From a virus (lineage: Duplodnaviria > Heunggongvirae > Uroviricota > Caudoviricetes): a DNA stretch of 15,874 bases. The DNA lies in the IMG/VR virus record IMGVR_UViG_2526164613_000013. One strand, written 5' to 3'. Shown here piece by piece: positions 1,362 to 7,064 of the stretch (the stretch's first letter is position 1; the number at the start of each line of letters is the position of its first letter). The notes under the pieces were generated by a model. That model was not told the DNA's origin, did no database searches, and worked only from the letters and a program-made list of their open reading frames with translations. A program made the position numbers and the translations under genes.

Positions 1362-1564
1362 AACCTCACTCCCAGCGGACGACGGCGACGCCGGGTTGTC
1401 CCCAGTACCGACTCCGCATCATTGATCGCCCGGTTAAGCTCATCCAGAGAAGCCGCCGTATATTCAATTCTGCGACCATCCTTCTGGACAGACACCACCC
1501 GTTTACCGGTTAATAAATCAAGGCGCGCCTGACGCAGCGCCTGCAGTTCAGCGACTGTAACCAT
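1358..1564 (-). CDS. W: Head-tail joining / head completion protein (lambda gpW-like)
   Basis: 68-aa ORF MVTVAELQALRQARLDLLTGKRVVSVQKDGRRIEYTAASL... resembles lambda W (…LMTGKRVATVQKDGRRVEF…). Sits between terminase and portal as in lambda, with its stop overlapping the portal start. Confidence 0.9.
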   Translation of the reverse strand: MVTVAELQALRQARLDLLTGKRVVSVQKDGRRIEYTAASLDELNRAINDAESVLGTTRRRRRPLGVRL

Positions 1565-3476
1565 TCACTCCTCCGGACAGCTTCGCTGCCAGTTCTTTCA
1601 GGGTTGGCCGGGTCGTCTCTTCTTCCCGGGATTTTGCCAGTACAGCCAGATCAAGCTGCCAGCGTTGCACGGACACACGTAATGCCGCGTAGGCATACAC
1701 CAGGCAGTCCAGCGCTTCGTTACGCCGCTTTTTGTTATCCCACAGCAGACGCATCTTTCCTTTTTCCCACTTCTCCACAAGCTCTTCCGCGACCAGTTGC
1801 TGCGCCTCTGTCTGCGAAAAAATCTCCGGATCATCAGGAAAACGGATGGCATACGACGTGGCTTCATCCGCAGGCGTGGGATCGGCTTTCATACGGGCAT
1901 AGAGAATTTCTTTTGCGGTGTCCGTCCCCACTTCACACAGATACACGCCCCGCTGATTGCGGGTTTTCGGCATGGTGATCACCGGCTTGCCATAGACAGA
2001 CGCGCCCTTTACCGGCAGCACCCGGAAAACACCGTGTTTTTTTGATCTCTGATAAACAATTTCACCATCGATCCCCCGGTGTCCCAGCAGACACGGGAAA
2101 TAGTCATTTCGGTGCCATCCGCATGGCGGTATTTTTTGTTGATCGCCGCATCCACACGTAACAGCGTCTCTTCCTCATCAGGACGCCCCATAATGATGAT
2201 TTTATCCACCAGAAAGGCTTCCTCTCCCGGAGCCCATCCCCAGACATACATCTCAAAACGGTTTCGCTGCGAGTCAATGCCCGCCGTCAGATAAACCACC
2301 CGGGCAGGCACCGCCGCCGTGTAACGCACCACCTTATCCATCAGTACCTGGTGATCGAGTTTTTCGCCCCACGGCCTCTTCCCAGGTCTCGCCCAGCGTG
2401 GTGTTCACAAAGGTTTTCAGGCCGTTGGGATCTTTCAGTGCATCCAGCCAGTCATAGACAATCTGTACCCAGGTGGTGAACGGACTGTACGCCGTCCAGA
2501 TATGGAACGTGATGGAGCGCGGCGGCGGAATTTCATCACCCCGGGCGCTGAAAAACGTCAGACCGTCACGGGTCCACATGCCCGTGTTTTCACAGATCCA
2601 CCGCCCGTTACTCTGGTCAAGCTCAGACTGATGGATCACACAGCCATGATGCTCACAAAGGTAGAAAACACTTTCTGGCTTATTCTTCTCCCACTTAAGA
2701 CCGAAAGGCGAGGCATCATCGCCAAATTTCAGATACTGCTCCTCCCCACAGTGCGGACAGGGCACATAAAAACGCATGAAGTGTGCCGACTCGTTAGCGG
2801 CTTTTTCGATCTGGCAGGTGCCTTTGATTTTAGGCGTCGAGCCGCGAATGGATTTTGGCCACACCGACCCCTCAATACGCTTATCCCCCAGCAGGGTTGG
2901 CGAGCCCTCTTTTTCGACATCCGGCTCGAACGAGGAAAGTTCGTCATAGCAGACCACGTCCACGGATTTTTCACGGTAGTTTTTGGCGGCAGCGCCGCCC
3001 AGGCACCAGAAACCGACGCCCGATGAAAAGCGTTTCAGCGTGAGAGTATTGTCACGATGTTTACGACCCAGCCATGGGGAAAGGTCTTTCAGGCATGGCA
3101 CGTTCCGAATCGTCGCCTCCACGTGAGACTTCATAAAATCTTCAGCGGCAGAATCCGTGGGCTGAAAAAGCAGACTGTTTCGGGATTTATGCTCAATAAA
3201 ATACCCGACCACCCCCAGCAACATCTTTGTATAGCCAACACGGGCAGATTTAATCAGGTTAACCGTGCGAACCTGGTCGTTACCCATACAGTTCATGATG
3301 GCGATCTGGAATGGCAGCGTTTTCCATTCTCCCTCACCATATGAAGATTCTTTAGGCAGAGAATAATTTTGATCAGCCCATTCAACTGCCGTCATTGGTA
3401 CAACCCTGACCAGAGGCTGCAGCGCAACCGAAACGGCAGCCATCATATTATTCAGTTGTTGCTCTGATATATTCAT
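1548..3476 (-). CDS. A: Terminase large subunit (lambda gpA-like), interrupted by two apparent single-base frameshifts (C-run 2073-2077 and C-run 2367-2370 on plus strand); possible pseudogene
   Basis: Three consecutive minus-strand ORFs (2334..3533, 2009..2341, 1548..2021) are collinear with lambda gpA: MNISEQQLNN...TAVEWADQNY...KSARVGYTKMLLGV...CPHCGEEQYLKFGD...HIWTAYSPFTTWVQIV...TLGETWE / ...YLTAGIDSQ...CWDTGG / ...QRSKKHGVFRVLPVKGASVYGKPV...LWDNKKRRNEALDC. Start taken at ATG 3474-3476 (MNISEQ). Frame junctions were located by hand translation. Confidence 0.92.
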
Positions 3477-3957
3477 CGAGTAAATCCGGTAATTTATCCC
3501 CTGCCCGCGCACACTGGTTTGCCCCCTTAGCAATAAGGGTTTTCAGATGGTCAAGATGGCACGGTGTTAAATCAGGAAACTGTCGCTGCATGGATAAAGG
3601 GATGGAATCAAGCGTACTGGATAACGCCATTGCCAGCTTACTGAGGGCAAAAATACAGAACCCGGTGTCAATAAGTTTTCCTTTTGACACCTCATTTTTT
3701 AGCTGCTGTGTAACAGCCTGTTCTGCTGTCAGTTCCCATCTGGCAATAAGCAATTTCTCCTCATAGTCGTCTTCGCTATCGCCATCAGGCACATCGTTTT
3801 TACTTCTCCTCAGATACGATATGTAAAAATCGCGCCAGGCATCCAGATCCAGTTGCCCTCGCTTATTCGATATCGGGGCACCCGGCAATTTCTGCAATCT
3901 GCGAAGCTGGCGATCGGTCAGACTTAAATGCCTGGCAACTTCAGTCTGCGTAGCCAC
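3448..3957 (-). CDS. nu1: Terminase small subunit (lambda Nu1-like), probable GTG start
   Basis: 169-aa ORF with an N-terminal HTH-like segment (EVARHLSLTDRQLRRLQ) and a C-terminus (TGFCIFALSKLA...LSMQRQFPDL...LPDLLDEYI) resembling lambda Nu1. Lies immediately downstream of cos and overlaps the terminase large subunit start, as in lambda. Confidence 0.8.
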   Translation of the reverse strand: MATQTEVARHLSLTDRQLRRLQKLPGAPISNKRGQLDLDAWRDFYISYLRRSKNDVPDGDSEDDYEEKLLIARWELTAEQAVTQQLKNEVSKGKLIDTGFCIFALSKLAMALSSTLDSIPLSMQRQFPDLTPCHLDHLKTLIAKGANQCARAGDKLPDLLDEYIRATTE

Positions 3958-5172: not shown

Positions 5173-5397
5173 TCAACACACTGGCTGTAATGCAGCGGAT
5201 ACCATGCGGCATTTAGCGGCATTCATCGTACACTCCACGGTTAGCTCTTCATTCGTGGCATTCACCTGAAAGGTCCGGGAGTGTAATTGCGTACATTTAC
5301 CACTGAACGAACCTTCAACAAGAACACGACCACGCTGCAAAATACGGAACGGAATTGTTCCCTGAAAAGGTTCTACGGTTACCCGTAATTTCTTCAT
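5173..5397 (-). CDS. Hypothetical 74-aa protein, translationally coupled to Rz
   Basis: Its ATG overlaps the Rz stop (ATGA) and is preceded by GGAGGA 4-5 nt upstream. Protein [37 protein letters not shown]... has no recognisable family. Confidence 0.4.
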
Positions 5398-5888
5398 GTA
5401 TCCTCCGGATAATAAAAAGCCAGCTTAGTGCACTGAGTGCGGATATATTCCTGCGCCCCTTCCAGCTGCTTCTGCATTGTCATCAACCGTTCTCTGAGGA
5501 TGAAATAATCCCGTTCAGCGGTGTCTGCCAGTCGGGGGCCGGTTGCATTATCCACGCTGGAGGTGCCGGTGGCTTCACGCACGGTACCGGGGCAGGTGGC
5601 GTTGACCCGCAGGCGCTTACGACCAGCGGCAACATCAGCGCGCAGAGTTTCAATTTCAGCTCTCGCATCGGCTAATTCCTTCGTGTATCTGGCATCAAGC
5701 GCAGCGACATCTCGCTGGCGCTGCTGCATGTCAGTAATAGTGGCATTCGCCAGTTTCAGCTCACTGACTTTTTTATCGCGCTGCGCTTTGTAGGTGATGG
5801 CGTTATCGCGGTAATGATTCAGCCCCAGACTAAGCACACCACAGGCTACCAGCAGGACAATAATCACCACACACAGAACACGGTTCAT
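5394..5888 (-). CDS. Rz: Rz i-spanin (inner membrane spanin subunit)
   Basis: [40 protein letters not shown]...[29 protein letters not shown]...[18 protein letters not shown] is near-identical to lambda Rz. Start taken at ATG 5886-5888; the ORF-track upstream extension is not used. Confidence 0.9.
5483..5668 (-). CDS. Rz1: Rz1 o-spanin lipoprotein, embedded in the +1 frame of Rz
   Basis: [22 protein letters not shown]...[32 protein letters not shown] matches lambda Rz1 (lipobox plus proline-rich mature region) and lies entirely inside Rz. Confidence 0.85.
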
Positions 5889-5889
5889 A

Positions 5890-5976
5890 TCACCACCAAC
5901 GGATTGCCCAGACCAGAACAGCAATGGCCACAATACGAATGGCAAATGCCATTGCCCGAATAAGTTCAGCACTCAT
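5890..5976 (-). CDS. Candidate 28-aa hydrophobic peptide ([28 protein letters not shown]); its stop abuts the Rz start (TGA-t-ATG)
   Basis: ATG start, single predicted TM helix. Paralogous to the next peptide upstream through a shared RA(L/M)AFAI(K/R) core. No obvious Shine-Dalgarno sequence. Confidence 0.3.
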
Positions 5977-5987
5977 CTTTTTAAAGT

Positions 5988-6110
5988 TCACGATTTCAGC
6001 GCAATGACCAGTTTTGCCAGCCCATACAGCATCGGAGACACAGCAATACCAACAGCCACCCACTTAATAGCAAAAGCCAGCGCTCTGCTGATGTCATCAG
6101 TCACTGTCAC
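5988..6110 (-). CDS. Candidate ~40-aa hydrophobic peptide (…TVTDDISRALAFAIKWVAVGIAVSPMLYGLAKLVIALKS), probable GTG start overlapping the stop of the upstream mini-ORF
   Basis: C-terminal portion of track ORF 5988..6260, whose N-terminal part overlaps the neighbouring mini-ORFs and is unlikely to be translated. Paralogous to the 28-aa peptide at 5890..5976. Confidence 0.3.
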   Translation of the reverse strand: MTVTDDISRALAFAIKWVAVGIAVSPMLYGLAKLVIALKS

Positions 6111-6238
6111 CCCAGCAGCCCCGACGAAGACAACATCACCCAGGCGAGGGACAGAAAAAGAGCAACCAGCATTAGTGAAAATGAAATACCGACAATCACA
6201 CACAGGACCTTTGCCGGCGTTATGAGTTTGTCTGACAT
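6107..6238 (-). CDS. Candidate 43-aa membrane peptide (MSDKLITPAKVLCVIVGISFSLMLVALFLSLAWVMLSSSGLLG)
   Basis: ATG start with AAGGGG 5 nt upstream; the start is 2 nt after the stop of the preceding mini-ORF. About 28-residue hydrophobic core. Below the ORF-track cutoff. Confidence 0.35.
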   Translation of the reverse strand: MSDKLITPAKVLCVIVGISFSLMLVALFLSLAWVMLSSSGLLG

Positions 6239-6240
6239 AG

Positions 6241-6336
6241 CTACCCCTTAATTGCCACAATTAACTGGGATACTACCCATAAAAAAGGGATGCTCCAGAC
6301 CAGCAAAAATTTCCAGTTTGGTAATTGACTAATCAT
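6241..6336 (-). CDS. Candidate 31-aa membrane peptide (MISQLPNWKFLLVWSIPFLWVVSQLIVAIKG)
   Basis: ATG start with GGGAG 9 nt upstream. It is the C-terminal part of track ORF 6241..6453, whose N-terminal part overlaps the hairpin terminator and is unlikely to be coding. Confidence 0.3.
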   Translation of the reverse strand: MISQLPNWKFLLVWSIPFLWVVSQLIVAIKG

Positions 6337-6402
6337 GAGTCGCAACTCCCTAATCAGTTTGCTAAAATCAATCAAGGCAGCCTCCCATAGCTTACTGCCA
6401 TA

Positions 6403-6447
6403 AAAACAAAACCCCGCTTGCTGCCAACAAACGGGGTTTTTACTTTT
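6403..6447. terminator. Bidirectional intrinsic-terminator-like hairpin (stem aaaaccccg / cggggtttt, 15-nt loop) with T-tracts on both strands
   Basis: Perfect 9-bp inverted repeat at 6408-6416 / 6432-6440, followed by a U-run on each strand. Lies between the endolysin stop and the first mini-ORF. Confidence 0.6.
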
Positions 6448-6530
6448 ATTCACTTACGTTTCGCCAGTTCGCAGGATTTCATGTTATCCGCCCGCGTGGC
6501 CATGCCTTATTTTTCAGCAAAATATTCTGC

Positions 6531-7064
6531 TTATCTGTCGATACCCCAGCACGCCAGCGCGCTCTCCTGGTCACGACGGGATACCTGACCGTAGCAGTTG
6601 TTTGAACGAATACGGCAATCTCTGCCACCGTCCTTAATCCACCAGCGAATCGCCTCACATGCTCCCCTGCGATCACCAGCATTAATTCGTCTGTAAAACG
6701 TCGACGGGAAACACTTACCGGGACCAATGTTGTACGGACAGAATGACGCGATCCCCGCTTTCTGGGGTTCGGTCAATGGCACTTTGATGTTTTTCTCCAC
6801 CCATGCCAGCGCCTTATCACGCTCAATGGCGTTAACCTGGTCGCATTTCTCCTTCGACAACTTCATGCCCGGGACGACAGGTTTACCATCCACCAGAATG
6901 GCACCGCGACAGATGGTCCAGATACCCGCGCCATCACGGTATGCCGTGGTGTGGTTACCTTCCTTTTCATCCAGAAACTGGTCGAGAATGTCAGGCGCAG
7001 GCGCACCAGCGGCAATCAGCGCCAGAACGGCAGCCGACAGGCCGTATTTGATTTTGGTGTTCAT
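6531..7064 (-). CDS. Endolysin, lysozyme-type with an N-terminal signal-anchor-release (SAR) domain (phage 21 R / RrrD-like)
   Basis: 177-aa ORF with a weakly hydrophobic Ala/Gly-rich N-terminus (GLSAAVLALIAAGAPAP) followed by a lysozyme catalytic region (E...D...T: LDEKEGNHTTAYRDGAGIWTICRG). Paired with a pinholin, as expected for SAR endolysins. Confidence 0.85.
   Translation of the reverse strand: MNTKIKYGLSAAVLALIAAGAPAPDILDQFLDEKEGNHTTAYRDGAGIWTICRGAILVDGKPVVPGMKLSKEKCDQVNAIERDKALAWVEKNIKVPLTEPQKAGIASFCPYNIGPGKCFPSTFYRRINAGDRRGACEAIRWWIKDGGRDCRIRSNNCYGQVSRRDQESALACWGIDR

Follow-up and report, generated by a model that had tools for sequence, protein, structure and literature searches.

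Introduction

In phage 21 the antiholin S71, with TMD1 of the pinholin, provides a single transmembrane (TM) helix that regulates oligomerisation of TMD2 through helix-helix contacts, and in systems with a signal-anchor-release (SAR) endolysin such as R21 the enzyme is released by any depolarisation of the membrane. Phage P2 has the gene order Y-K-lysA-lysB/lysC, and loss of LysA slightly advances lysis. Lysis by phages of Gram-negative hosts is usually taught as the work of a holin, an endolysin and a spanin, and the Mu releasin and Lcc6 show that small membrane proteins can be missing players. Lcc6, a TM protein of 65 amino acids (aa), is needed for the holin step of the Shewanella phage LambdaSo, which has a pinholin and a SAR endolysin (bioRxiv 10.1101/2024.01.23.576932), and gp25 of Mu, a membrane protein with the DUF2730 domain, controls release of a SAR endolysin (PMC9239132). 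Here we analyze four small open reading frames (ORFs) for hydrophobic peptides, together with the hairpin in front of them, that lie between the endolysin gene R and the spanin gene Rz in the IMG/VR record IMGVR_UViG_2526164613_000013, a stretch of 15,874 nucleotides (nt) from a virus of the Caudoviricetes that is called the window throughout.

Results

Four conserved peptide genes between R and Rz

The comparisons described below indicate that the four ORFs are genuine conserved genes, each for a predicted single-pass hydrophobic peptide. An earlier note, made from the letters of the window alone, had pointed to a separation of about 640 base pairs (bp) between R and Rz, and the gap from R to the ATG of Rz at position 5888 indeed amounts to 642 bp. 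The borders of the gap and the elements within it are as follows.

6531-7064, minus strand: R, an R21-type (SAR-type) lysozyme and upstream border of the gap (PF00959, 1.4e-24; PHROG endolysin; named 'lysozyme' by PGAP)
6398-6440 (stem 6408-6440), minus strand: G+C-rich hairpin with T tail, resembling an intrinsic terminator, 5' boundary of the ORF1 cassette
6241-6375, minus strand: ORF1, 44 aa (MIDFSKLIRELRLMISQLPNWKFLLVWSIPFLWVVSQLIVAIKG), TTG start, Shine-Dalgarno GGGAGG at 6381-6386, phrog_6632
6107-6238, minus strand: ORF2, 43 aa (MSDKLITPAKVLCVIVGISFSLMLVALFLSLAWVMLSSSGLLG), one long predicted TM segment with GxxxS, phrog_4906
5988-6110, minus strand: ORF3, 40 aa from GTG 6110, family core AFAIKWVAVGIAVSPMLYGLAKLVIALKS, phrog_3246, phrog_1115 and phrog_4493
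5890-5976, minus strand: ORF4, 28 aa, a short ORF3 paralogue ending IRWW-stop at Rz, phrog_4493 and phrog_3246
5394-5888, minus strand: Rz i-spanin, downstream border of the gap (PF03245, 7.4e-51; phrog_13)

The hydrophobic character ascribed to the peptides was borne out, since all four have grand average of hydropathicity (GRAVY) values of 0.9-1.6 and best-window Kyte-Doolittle values of 1.9-2.8, with a single hydrophobic segment each. ORF1 has an amphipathic basic N-terminus in front of its one TM helix. With lengths of 28-44 aa, the peptides have at most eight residues past the TM segment and lack a lipobox.

ORF1 had been proposed as a 31-codon ATG ORF. The frame, the ATG at 6336 and the stop at 6241-6243 stand, but the start does not: because the invariant N-terminus of the homologues, IDFSKLIRELR, lies upstream of ATG 6336, the true start is TTG 6375, 5 nt behind the Shine-Dalgarno sequence. 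The coordinates and spacings of the earlier note all proved correct, and the tight coupling of the genes was found as described, with the ATG of ORF2 2 nt past the ORF1 stop and the GTG of ORF3 (6110-6108) overlapping the TGA of ORF2 (6109-6107). ORF3 and ORF4 are spaced by 11 nt, and the last stop does abut Rz, with 1 nt between the TGA of ORF4 and the ATG of Rz. Alternative starts exist for ORF3, giving 38 aa from GTG 6104 or, in the PGAP annotation, 51 aa from 6143. ORF4 is without a clear Shine-Dalgarno sequence, and that of Rz (GGTGG) is located within the ORF4 codons for RWW. The paralogy claimed for two of the peptides holds for ORF3 and ORF4, which both match phrog_4493 and phrog_3246 and align over the length of ORF4, corresponding to the N-terminus of the family.

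The tiling of the gap by ORFs could not be shown to go beyond chance, as a coverage of at least 0.95 was reached in 115 of 3000 dinucleotide shuffles (3.8%). Tiling alone being not improbable, gene status must therefore rest on comparison. Conservation of the reading frames in related prophages was accordingly checked, and frame-specific purifying selection was seen in all four ORFs. The ratio of nonsynonymous to synonymous differences (pN/pS), calculated as Nei-Gojobori proportions on distinct DNA copies, comes from small samples and non-independent pairs, and its meaningful result is the contrast between the called frame and the other two, which is 0.10 versus 0.97 and 4.47 for ORF3, 0.30 versus 1.07 and 1.89 for ORF2, 0.41 versus 0.71 and 1.66 for ORF1, and 0.33 versus 0.68 and 1.79 for ORF4. 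The contrast is weakest for ORF1 and ORF4, for which loci from other genera had been added since the first set was too little diverse. No constraint appeared in the opposite-strand frames in the same comparison.

The pattern of conservation within each family is in line with these values. ORF2 has 103 homologous protein clusters, nearly all full-length members being exactly 43 aa long with 62-98% identity, and substitutions are conservative exchanges among I, L, V and M. ORF3 has 93 clusters in E. coli and Salmonella, where only the C-terminal ~38 aa are conserved and differing N-termini give forms of 38, 47-48 and 60 aa. The ORF1 homologues are 44-45 aa long and share the N-terminus M(I/V)DFSKLIRELR, with synonymous changes in the underlying codons; they occur in E. 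coli, Salmonella, Providencia, Citrobacter, Enterobacter, Klebsiella, Brenneria and Symbiopectobacterium. This taxonomic spread is underestimated, as a contig scan gave only four loci, probably because its pattern required an ATG methionine when many homologues start with GTG or TTG.

Families and database searches

The earlier note had recognised no known family in the peptides. This is correct with respect to characterised families, scans against Pfam (E <= 1), NCBIfam and PADLOC (E <= 1) having given zero matches to the peptides. It is not correct in the wider sense, since PHROGs and RefSeq WP entries already hold them. The PHROG E-values are 1.3e-12 for ORF1 in a 70-aa form, 4.5e-21 for ORF2, 1.9e-27 for ORF3 and 3.8e-6 for ORF4, with the phrog_6632 profile spanning residues 28-69 of the 70-aa extended ORF1 frame. 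All matched PHROGs (6632, 4906 and 3246/1115/4493) are annotated 'unknown function', and the database names of the peptides are all 'hypothetical protein'.

Profile-profile comparison of the ORF1, ORF2 and ORF3 families gave probabilities of 1-3%, i.e. no relation, so that the peptides fall, as judged from their profiles, into three unrelated families: ORF1, ORF2 and ORF3/ORF4. A common ancestor of the three was considered and finds no support in this comparison, save for the leader and hairpin shared by ORF1 and the long form of ORF3. A search of 1.84 billion cluster representatives with the ORF1 profile yielded just 39, which are short proteins except for one 710-aa match with six partial stretches. 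The families are thus narrow, phage-borne micro-proteins that are already catalogued but uncharacterised.

Known classes of small phage and membrane proteins were compared one at a time. The peptides gave no PF04971 match at E <= 1 and have one hydrophobic segment and not the two TM helices of a class II holin or antiholin. As candidate spanins they lack a lipobox or a long periplasmic part, and an intact Rz/Rz1 pair follows. The Pfam scan gave no Hok/Gef or other toxin-family match and no match to DUF2730, the releasin domain, and no anti-phage defence profile of PADLOC matched at E <= 1. Rfam searched over 5800-6650 (gathering threshold, and E <= 1) returned nothing beyond BSnc120, whose 17.5 bits (gathering score 114) are at chance level, and thus no known small RNA. 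An antisense promoter was not found beyond chance, with one weak plus-strand site where 2.1 are expected.

Literature searches by WP accession and peptide string found no paper in the collection searched that names the peptides, which are also not mentioned in a survey of Stx-phage lysis cassettes (PMC8136144). The 117-nt gene X032 found by ribosome profiling in EDL933 was considered as ORF3 on account of its size and rejected, its sequence being unrelated (PMC4765031 supplement).

The hairpin in front of ORF1

The perfect 9-bp stem of the terminator claimed for this region is present as the core of a hairpin at 6440-6408, which has 15 pairs when G-U pairs are counted and a T tail after it. 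The RNA has a minimum free energy of -24.2 kcal/mol (z = -5.2), and none of 200 shuffles folded as well. The scan called a terminator on the minus strand only, so that the label 'bidirectional' is not established. The hairpin is upstream of the peptide genes, and none is found between ORF4 and Rz.

A terminator inside a lysis operon had been regarded as odd. This view is not supported, as the hairpin is conserved together with the ORF1 cassette, and with the long form of ORF3, wherever it was examined. ORF1 homologues in seven genera are preceded, at about 35-45 nt from the start codon, by a hairpin that is rich in G+C and ends in a T tail; this covers every context examined, with the partial match in Dryocola (L183) left out. 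The stem sequences differ among contexts, and RNAalifold gave 13 pairs, six of which show double compensatory changes. The same hairpin and leader also stand 5' of the 60-aa form of the ORF3 family. Two arrays that begin with other families (L170 and L175) are without a strong hairpin after the endolysin gene. Because the hairpin is kept with the ORF1 cassette across contexts, it is read here as the 5' end of a mobile mini-cassette and not as an operon anomaly.

Lambdoid late transcription from pR' is antiterminated by Q and passes intrinsic terminators. We infer that the hairpin would silence the downstream peptides unless Q-modified polymerase arrives. A consensus scan of the coding strand for sigma-70-like promoters gave none in the window, L170 and L175, a scan that weak or non-canonical sites might escape. 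A promoter overlapping the hairpin was considered and rejected, as it was not conserved by eye and was not called by the scan.

The R-Rz junction across phages and E. coli genomes

The earlier note held that cassettes of the S21/R21 type normally run without a gap. To examine the junction, 60 phage records were taken evenly down the ranking of 425 matches, and 43 of the 60 contained both R and Rz. They have the following architectures.

About 1-kb gap: 34 of 43 records
About 300-bp gap: 5 of 43 records
Array of the window: 1 of 43 records
Shorter array: 1 of 43 records
Contiguous R and Rz (H92, H93): 2 of 43 records

With contiguous genes in only 2 of 43 sampled records, the gapless cassette cannot be taken as the normal one. 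Most Stx phages have ant and an ORF2 homologue at this junction. In the cases of the 1-kb class that were examined, a P22-like ant gene is followed by an ORF2-family gene ending 7 nt before Rz (L119 and VT2-Sakai). The homologue in VT2-Sakai is unannotated and lies directly 5' of Rz, and in EDL933 (phage 933W) the homologue EDL933_1392 adjoins the Rz gene EDL933_1393 (PMC4765031 supplement). The 300-bp class, represented by an Stx2c phage, has the hairpin and a single ORF1-family gene whose ...IRWW end is placed directly at Rz. Other IMG/VR loci have the order R-hairpin-ORF3(48-60 aa)-ORF2-Rz, or carry a DNA methylase gene inserted between ORF2 and Rz. Across the 80 loci L085-L164, Rz is preceded at 7-10 nt by an ORF2 homologue, except in four with the inserted methylase, and in about 165 loci examined the ORF2 family is never away from the endolysin-spanin region.

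Two further peptide families occur in related E. coli loci, one of 49-65 aa with ...KIIAVCRG.RHILTPVAW... and one of 50 aa (phrog_12997). In L175 the order is R, the 50-aa gene, an ORF3-family gene, a 49-aa gene and an ORF4-like gene abutting Rz, and altogether the number of peptide genes per array ranges from 0 to 5. In K-12 the Qin prophage has no gap between rrrQ and rzpQ, its spanin gene rzpQ being of the DUF2514 type and not PF03245.

The segment 5850-6560 is present at least partly in 2090 of 5426 complete E. coli genomes (~40%), and at least 80% of it in 587. An identical array was present in 77 of the 84 loci that were examined first, 80 of these 84 coming from IMG/VR, and two viable phages, PhiR5_1 (grown on E. 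coli C) and vB_EcoS-569R3, carry the array as well.

About 90 nt directly after R form a conserved part of the junction.

6441-6530, minus strand: post-R spacer of ~90 nt, common to 44 distinct variants of the post-R sequence

It is kept in all 44 variants, irrespective of whether the long ORF3 form, ant or the peptide array comes next. Loci of the ant class have another hairpin (AGGCACCgtaatGGTGCCTTTGTCATTT) behind the spacer. In most loci a +1-frame ORF that overlaps R at its 3' end stays open through the spacer, but in the window it is stopped.

Other observations were made in these loci. In the E. coli prophage L170 (2307-2961) a holin_8 gene, a holin_3_7 gene and a GH108 endolysin gene are followed by genes for a 65-aa TM protein, a 38-aa ORF3-family peptide, a 44-aa ORF2-family peptide and a 51-aa lipobox protein (phrog_7528), with no recognisable Rz before the terminase gene. 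In the E. coli prophages L174-L176 (1-635) a gene for a pertussis/Art-like ADP-ribosyltransferase toxin (PF01375 Enterotoxin_a) is located directly 5' of the S21 holin gene, which is the position of stx in Stx phages.

Mobility and origin of the array

The ORF1 family is found in very different surroundings. In E. coli it follows the R21-type lysozyme, between endolysin and spanin of an S21/R21/Rz cassette, and in Enterobacter it follows a GH19-type endolysin and precedes the unrelated spanins phrog_1026/phrog_1275. In Citrobacter (L168, 2840-3200) its neighbours are the lambda-like tail genes I and J, and three terminator-like hairpins surround it, with terminators on both sides; in Klebsiella grimontii (L169, 2900-3140) it lies between tail and baseplate genes of a prophage whose tail genes are of the baseplate (myovirus-like) type. 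In Brenneria and Symbiopectobacterium it stands after the gene for a 965-aa protein. ORF3- and ORF2-family genes also occur after a GH108 endolysin, and an ORF3-family gene is present in a Salmonella prophage remnant without lysis genes. Collectively, these comparisons show an array composed, mosaic-like, of mobile mini-cassettes, and a hairpin that travels with the ORF1 family to unrelated lysis and tail modules in seven genera. The leaders of L168 and L169 are nearly identical to each other (CTTTCCA.CGTT...ACGAGGAACATGTG).

The joints within the array point in the same direction. ORF1 of the window has a different C-terminus, ...AIKG, after which ORF2 follows. The GTG start of ORF3 is created at the ORF2 joint, and the usual N-terminal extension of the family is missing. 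ORF4 consists of the N-terminus of 38-aa ORF3-type proteins joined to the IRWW-stop/Rz joint, as found in the ORF1-family gene of the Stx2c phage. In PhiR5_1 another gene has taken the place of the hairpin together with 13 codons at the start of ORF1, which leaves exactly the 31-aa ATG form. The simplest arrangement among the relatives is R-hairpin-ORF1 homologue(...IRWW)-Rz. By comparison, the array of the window probably originated through nested recombination at a permissive junction, in which ORF2 and a truncated ORF3 would have been inserted and ORF4 would retain the IRWW/Rz joint. The earlier note had named decay from a longer gene as a finding that would speak against the peptide genes. 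This applies in part, ORF3 being a truncated form of a 38-60-aa family and ORF4 a chimera, but the ORFs are under constraint, and the region is best described from its sequence as a recombination mosaic whose pieces are still under constraint.

The prophage around the gap

The window represents the late region of an E. coli prophage that is lambdoid and Stx-phage-like and has every gene on the minus strand, and over 5850-6560 it shows 100% identity with prophages of O103:H2 12009, O55:H7 CB9615 and other enterohaemorrhagic (EHEC) and enteropathogenic (EPEC) strains. The gene order is AraC-like; tRNA-Met, tRNA-Arg, tRNA-Arg and the small RNA STnc100; SASA/DUF6645 esterase; S21-type holin; a 329-aa DUF1327/YdfR-like gene; R; the gap; Rz/Rz1; a 74-aa ORF; Nu1; and large terminase. 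Two further lysis genes complete the cassette.

8101-8307, minus strand: S21-type holin (PF04971)
5483-5668, minus strand: Rz1 o-spanin inside Rz, with a lipobox and a proline-rich sequence in the ORF

The large terminase gene is broken into three ORFs (2334-3533, 2009-2341 and 1548-2021, minus strand), and the SASA/DUF6645 esterase is in two (9152-10471 and 8599-9306, minus strand), the latter marked as frameshifted by PGAP in 12009. The prophage copy in the window thus looks defective, and the peptide array is nonetheless intact. No stx genes are found within the window.

The holin allele (8101-8376, minus strand) has the single start MEKITTG... and a length of 68 aa, the codon that would start the 71-aa form being ATA here. 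A tie between the peptides and a holin without the S71 dual start was considered and dropped, as strain JMF1 has a 71-aa holin and the same array. The 329-aa gene inserted between holin and R (7107-8096, minus strand; phrog_1085) has a DUF1327/YdfR domain at its N-terminal end. Shorter or different versions of it occur in related loci, so that the S-R junction is variable too. On the other side of the gap the 74-aa ORF (5173-5397, minus strand; phrog_2571), whose ATG overlaps the Rz stop, is kept 3' of Rz in several related loci. Further upstream STnc100 (138 bits) adjoins the tRNA genes Arg-tct, Arg-tcg and Met-cat (10694-11210, minus strand), a cluster known from the region downstream of Q in Stx-type prophages. 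The genes for an AraC-family regulator and a CAAX-protease/Rce1-like membrane protein (11239-11952 and 12572-13279, minus strand) are cargo-like.

Discussion

The reading that we rank first, tentatively and at somewhat less than an even chance, is that the peptides are made late and act as accessory modulators of lysis at its membrane step. It builds on coding constraint, family membership, mobility, hairpin conservation and position, which the comparisons above show. A role in lysis is suggested because ORF2 is always in the endolysin-spanin region, because the ORF1 family is placed between endolysin and spanin in two unrelated cassettes and ORF3- and ORF2-family genes after a third endolysin type, GH108, because no promoter is seen and the genes are packed with Rz, and because there is a published precedent in Lcc6, a small TM protein acting at the holin step. 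Late-only expression is suggested because an own promoter is not detectable, the genes are positioned behind a strong hairpin, and stop-to-start packing includes Rz. The Q-antiterminated late transcript, from which holin, endolysin and spanin are also made, would then most likely be the sole source of the peptides, translation starting at the Shine-Dalgarno sites of ORF1 and ORF2 and passing by coupling or re-initiation into ORF3, ORF4 and Rz. They are predicted to insert N-in into the inner membrane late in infection and could act as non-essential modulators shifting the timing of lysis, either through contacts of their helices with the holin, with the membrane-tethered endolysin or with the TM helix of the spanin, or by a small contribution to depolarisation.

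Several observations weigh against this reading. The ORF1 family also resides in tail and baseplate modules (L168, L169) and after the 965-aa protein, and the ORF3 family occurs without lysis genes; there is therefore no obligatory partnership with lysis proteins. That the peptides accompany holin/endolysin systems of three types speaks against any one specific holin partner. They are present in 0-5 copies, with some R-Rz pairs contiguous and none in K-12 Qin between rrrQ and rzpQ. The junction also takes Ant and a DNA methylase, so that the position may reflect tolerance to insertion and not function. A more far-reaching version, which we regard as doubtful, is that the R-Rz junction hosts a swappable library of hairpin-bounded micro-gene cassettes for trans-acting TM regulators of holin, SAR endolysin or spanin, a plug-in lysis timer, comprising at least five families of 28-65-aa single-TM peptides in Stx-type and other enterobacterial phages that would be exchanged by recombination.

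The alternative ranked second, possible but less probable than a role in lysis, is that the genes are moron-type cargo, i.e. autonomous accessory membrane proteins for superinfection exclusion, for example by a block of DNA entry as with HK97 gp15, or for host fitness, and that the junction is no more than a site that tolerates insertions. The mobility of the ORF1 family fits this well, since its genes with their own upstream hairpin reside in tail, baseplate and lysis modules of unrelated phages of seven genera, the Citrobacter copy having terminators on both flanks, and Ant and methylase genes use the same junction. The array is extra DNA relative to relatives with contiguous R and Rz and has a variable copy number, and HK97 gp15 is an example of a small inner-membrane moron product from a tail operon (PMC3594210). 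The array is also slightly lower in G+C than its neighbours (0.44-0.51, versus 0.51-0.56 for R and 0.54-0.59 for Rz), a small difference that is expected for T-rich hydrophobic codons. When compared with the published features of morons (PMC3594210), the extra DNA is found here, but an own promoter and a downstream terminator are not: no promoter-like site is seen on the coding strand in three arrays, and the hairpin, being upstream, would block read-through in the prophage state rather than allow expression. The peptide genes are moreover packed translationally with Rz, and the confinement of ORF2 to the endolysin-spanin region in about 165 loci also weighs against cargo.

The packing itself could have a purpose if the ORFs are translated spacers that couple ribosomes into Rz/Rz1, with the hairpin setting the ratio of S-R to Rz mRNA or mRNA stability and the peptide sequence constrained only loosely, so as to give harmless helices that insert into the membrane. 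The close succession of stops and starts (2 nt, overlap, 11 nt and 1 nt), the Rz Shine-Dalgarno sequence inside an ORF4 that has no clear one of its own, and the IRWW-stop/Rz joint that is kept whichever peptide gene precedes Rz agree with this. We consider it improbable, as contiguous R-Rz cassettes work without a spacer ORF, the same peptides are conserved where no spanin follows, and the residue-specific purifying selection (pN/pS 0.10 for ORF3, the invariant N-terminus of ORF1) exceeds the needs of a spacer. Slightly more improbable are membrane toxins of the type I kind, or auxiliary pinholins, that would depolarise the membrane alone and be silenced by the upstream terminator. The peptides are small and hydrophobic, in the size range of Hok, Ibs and TisB, a terminator directly upstream would be consistent with insulation of a toxic gene, and in R21-type systems any depolarisation would free the enzyme; on the other hand there is no toxin-family Pfam match, no antisense promoter beyond chance and no Rfam antitoxin RNA, the opposite-strand frames are unconstrained, and neither a long 5' untranslated region nor a stand-alone transcription unit is seen. 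Least probable, and already disfavoured, are non-functional remnants or chance frames in the DNA of a recombination scar. The truncated ORF3 and the 28-aa chimera ORF4, a tiling that 3.8% of shuffles match, and the degraded state of the prophage, with its split terminase and esterase genes, could be taken that way, but purifying selection is frame-specific in four of four ORFs, the array is identical in 77 of 84 loci, 587 E. coli genomes have at least 80% of the segment, several genera share a conserved ORF1, and viable phages carry the array.

The preferred reading, a modulation of the membrane step of lysis, raises the question of additional lysis factors in pinholin/SAR-endolysin phages, Stx phages included, the ORF2 family being present in the prototype Stx2 phages 933W and VT2-Sakai. 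If lysis timing is tuned by the peptides, burst size and the timing of Shiga-toxin release from EHEC would be affected; if they are exclusion factors, they would represent a new family of prophage-encoded defences. Natural variants with 0 to 5 peptide genes in otherwise similar cassettes are a direct test set for either reading.

Comparison with known systems

Type I toxins (Hok/Gef, Ldr, Ibs, TisB, ShoB, ZorO) are similar to the window peptides in size and hydrophobicity, but the latter have no family match, no antisense RNA and no independent transcription unit. HK97 gp15 (PMC3594210) resembles them as a small inner-membrane gene that is extra DNA in a late operon and spreads horizontally, and the ORF1 family too is found in tail operons; gp15 differs in having its own promoter and terminator, in being expressed from the prophage and in belonging to the YebO family, whereas no promoter was found here and the hairpin is upstream. 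Mu gp25 is larger and carries DUF2730, and the window peptides have no Pfam match.

Lcc6 is like the window peptides a small single-TM protein of no known family from a phage with pinholin, SAR endolysin and Rz/Rz1. Its gene is far from the lysis genes, near xis, it is essential, and it has an N-terminal TM helix with a 43-aa cytoplasmic tail, whereas the window peptides are encoded inside the lysis cassette in 0-5 copies and therefore cannot be essential; the resemblance is positional and physicochemical. The S71 antiholin with TMD1 shares the single TM helix and the type of cassette, with S21 holin and R21-like endolysin. It is made from an alternative start of the holin gene, whereas the window peptides are separate genes without PF04971 that also accompany other holin classes. 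P2 LysA is encoded exactly where the window peptides are, as an extra membrane protein between the endolysin and the Rz-like spanin genes, and it is non-essential and affects timing; with ~140 aa and several TM helices it differs from the 28-44-aa single-pass peptides, and the Pfam scan detected no homology to them. Set beside these systems, the feature is neither an artefact nor categorically new, but an uncharacterised and widespread variant of a known theme, that of extra membrane proteins in phage lysis cassettes.

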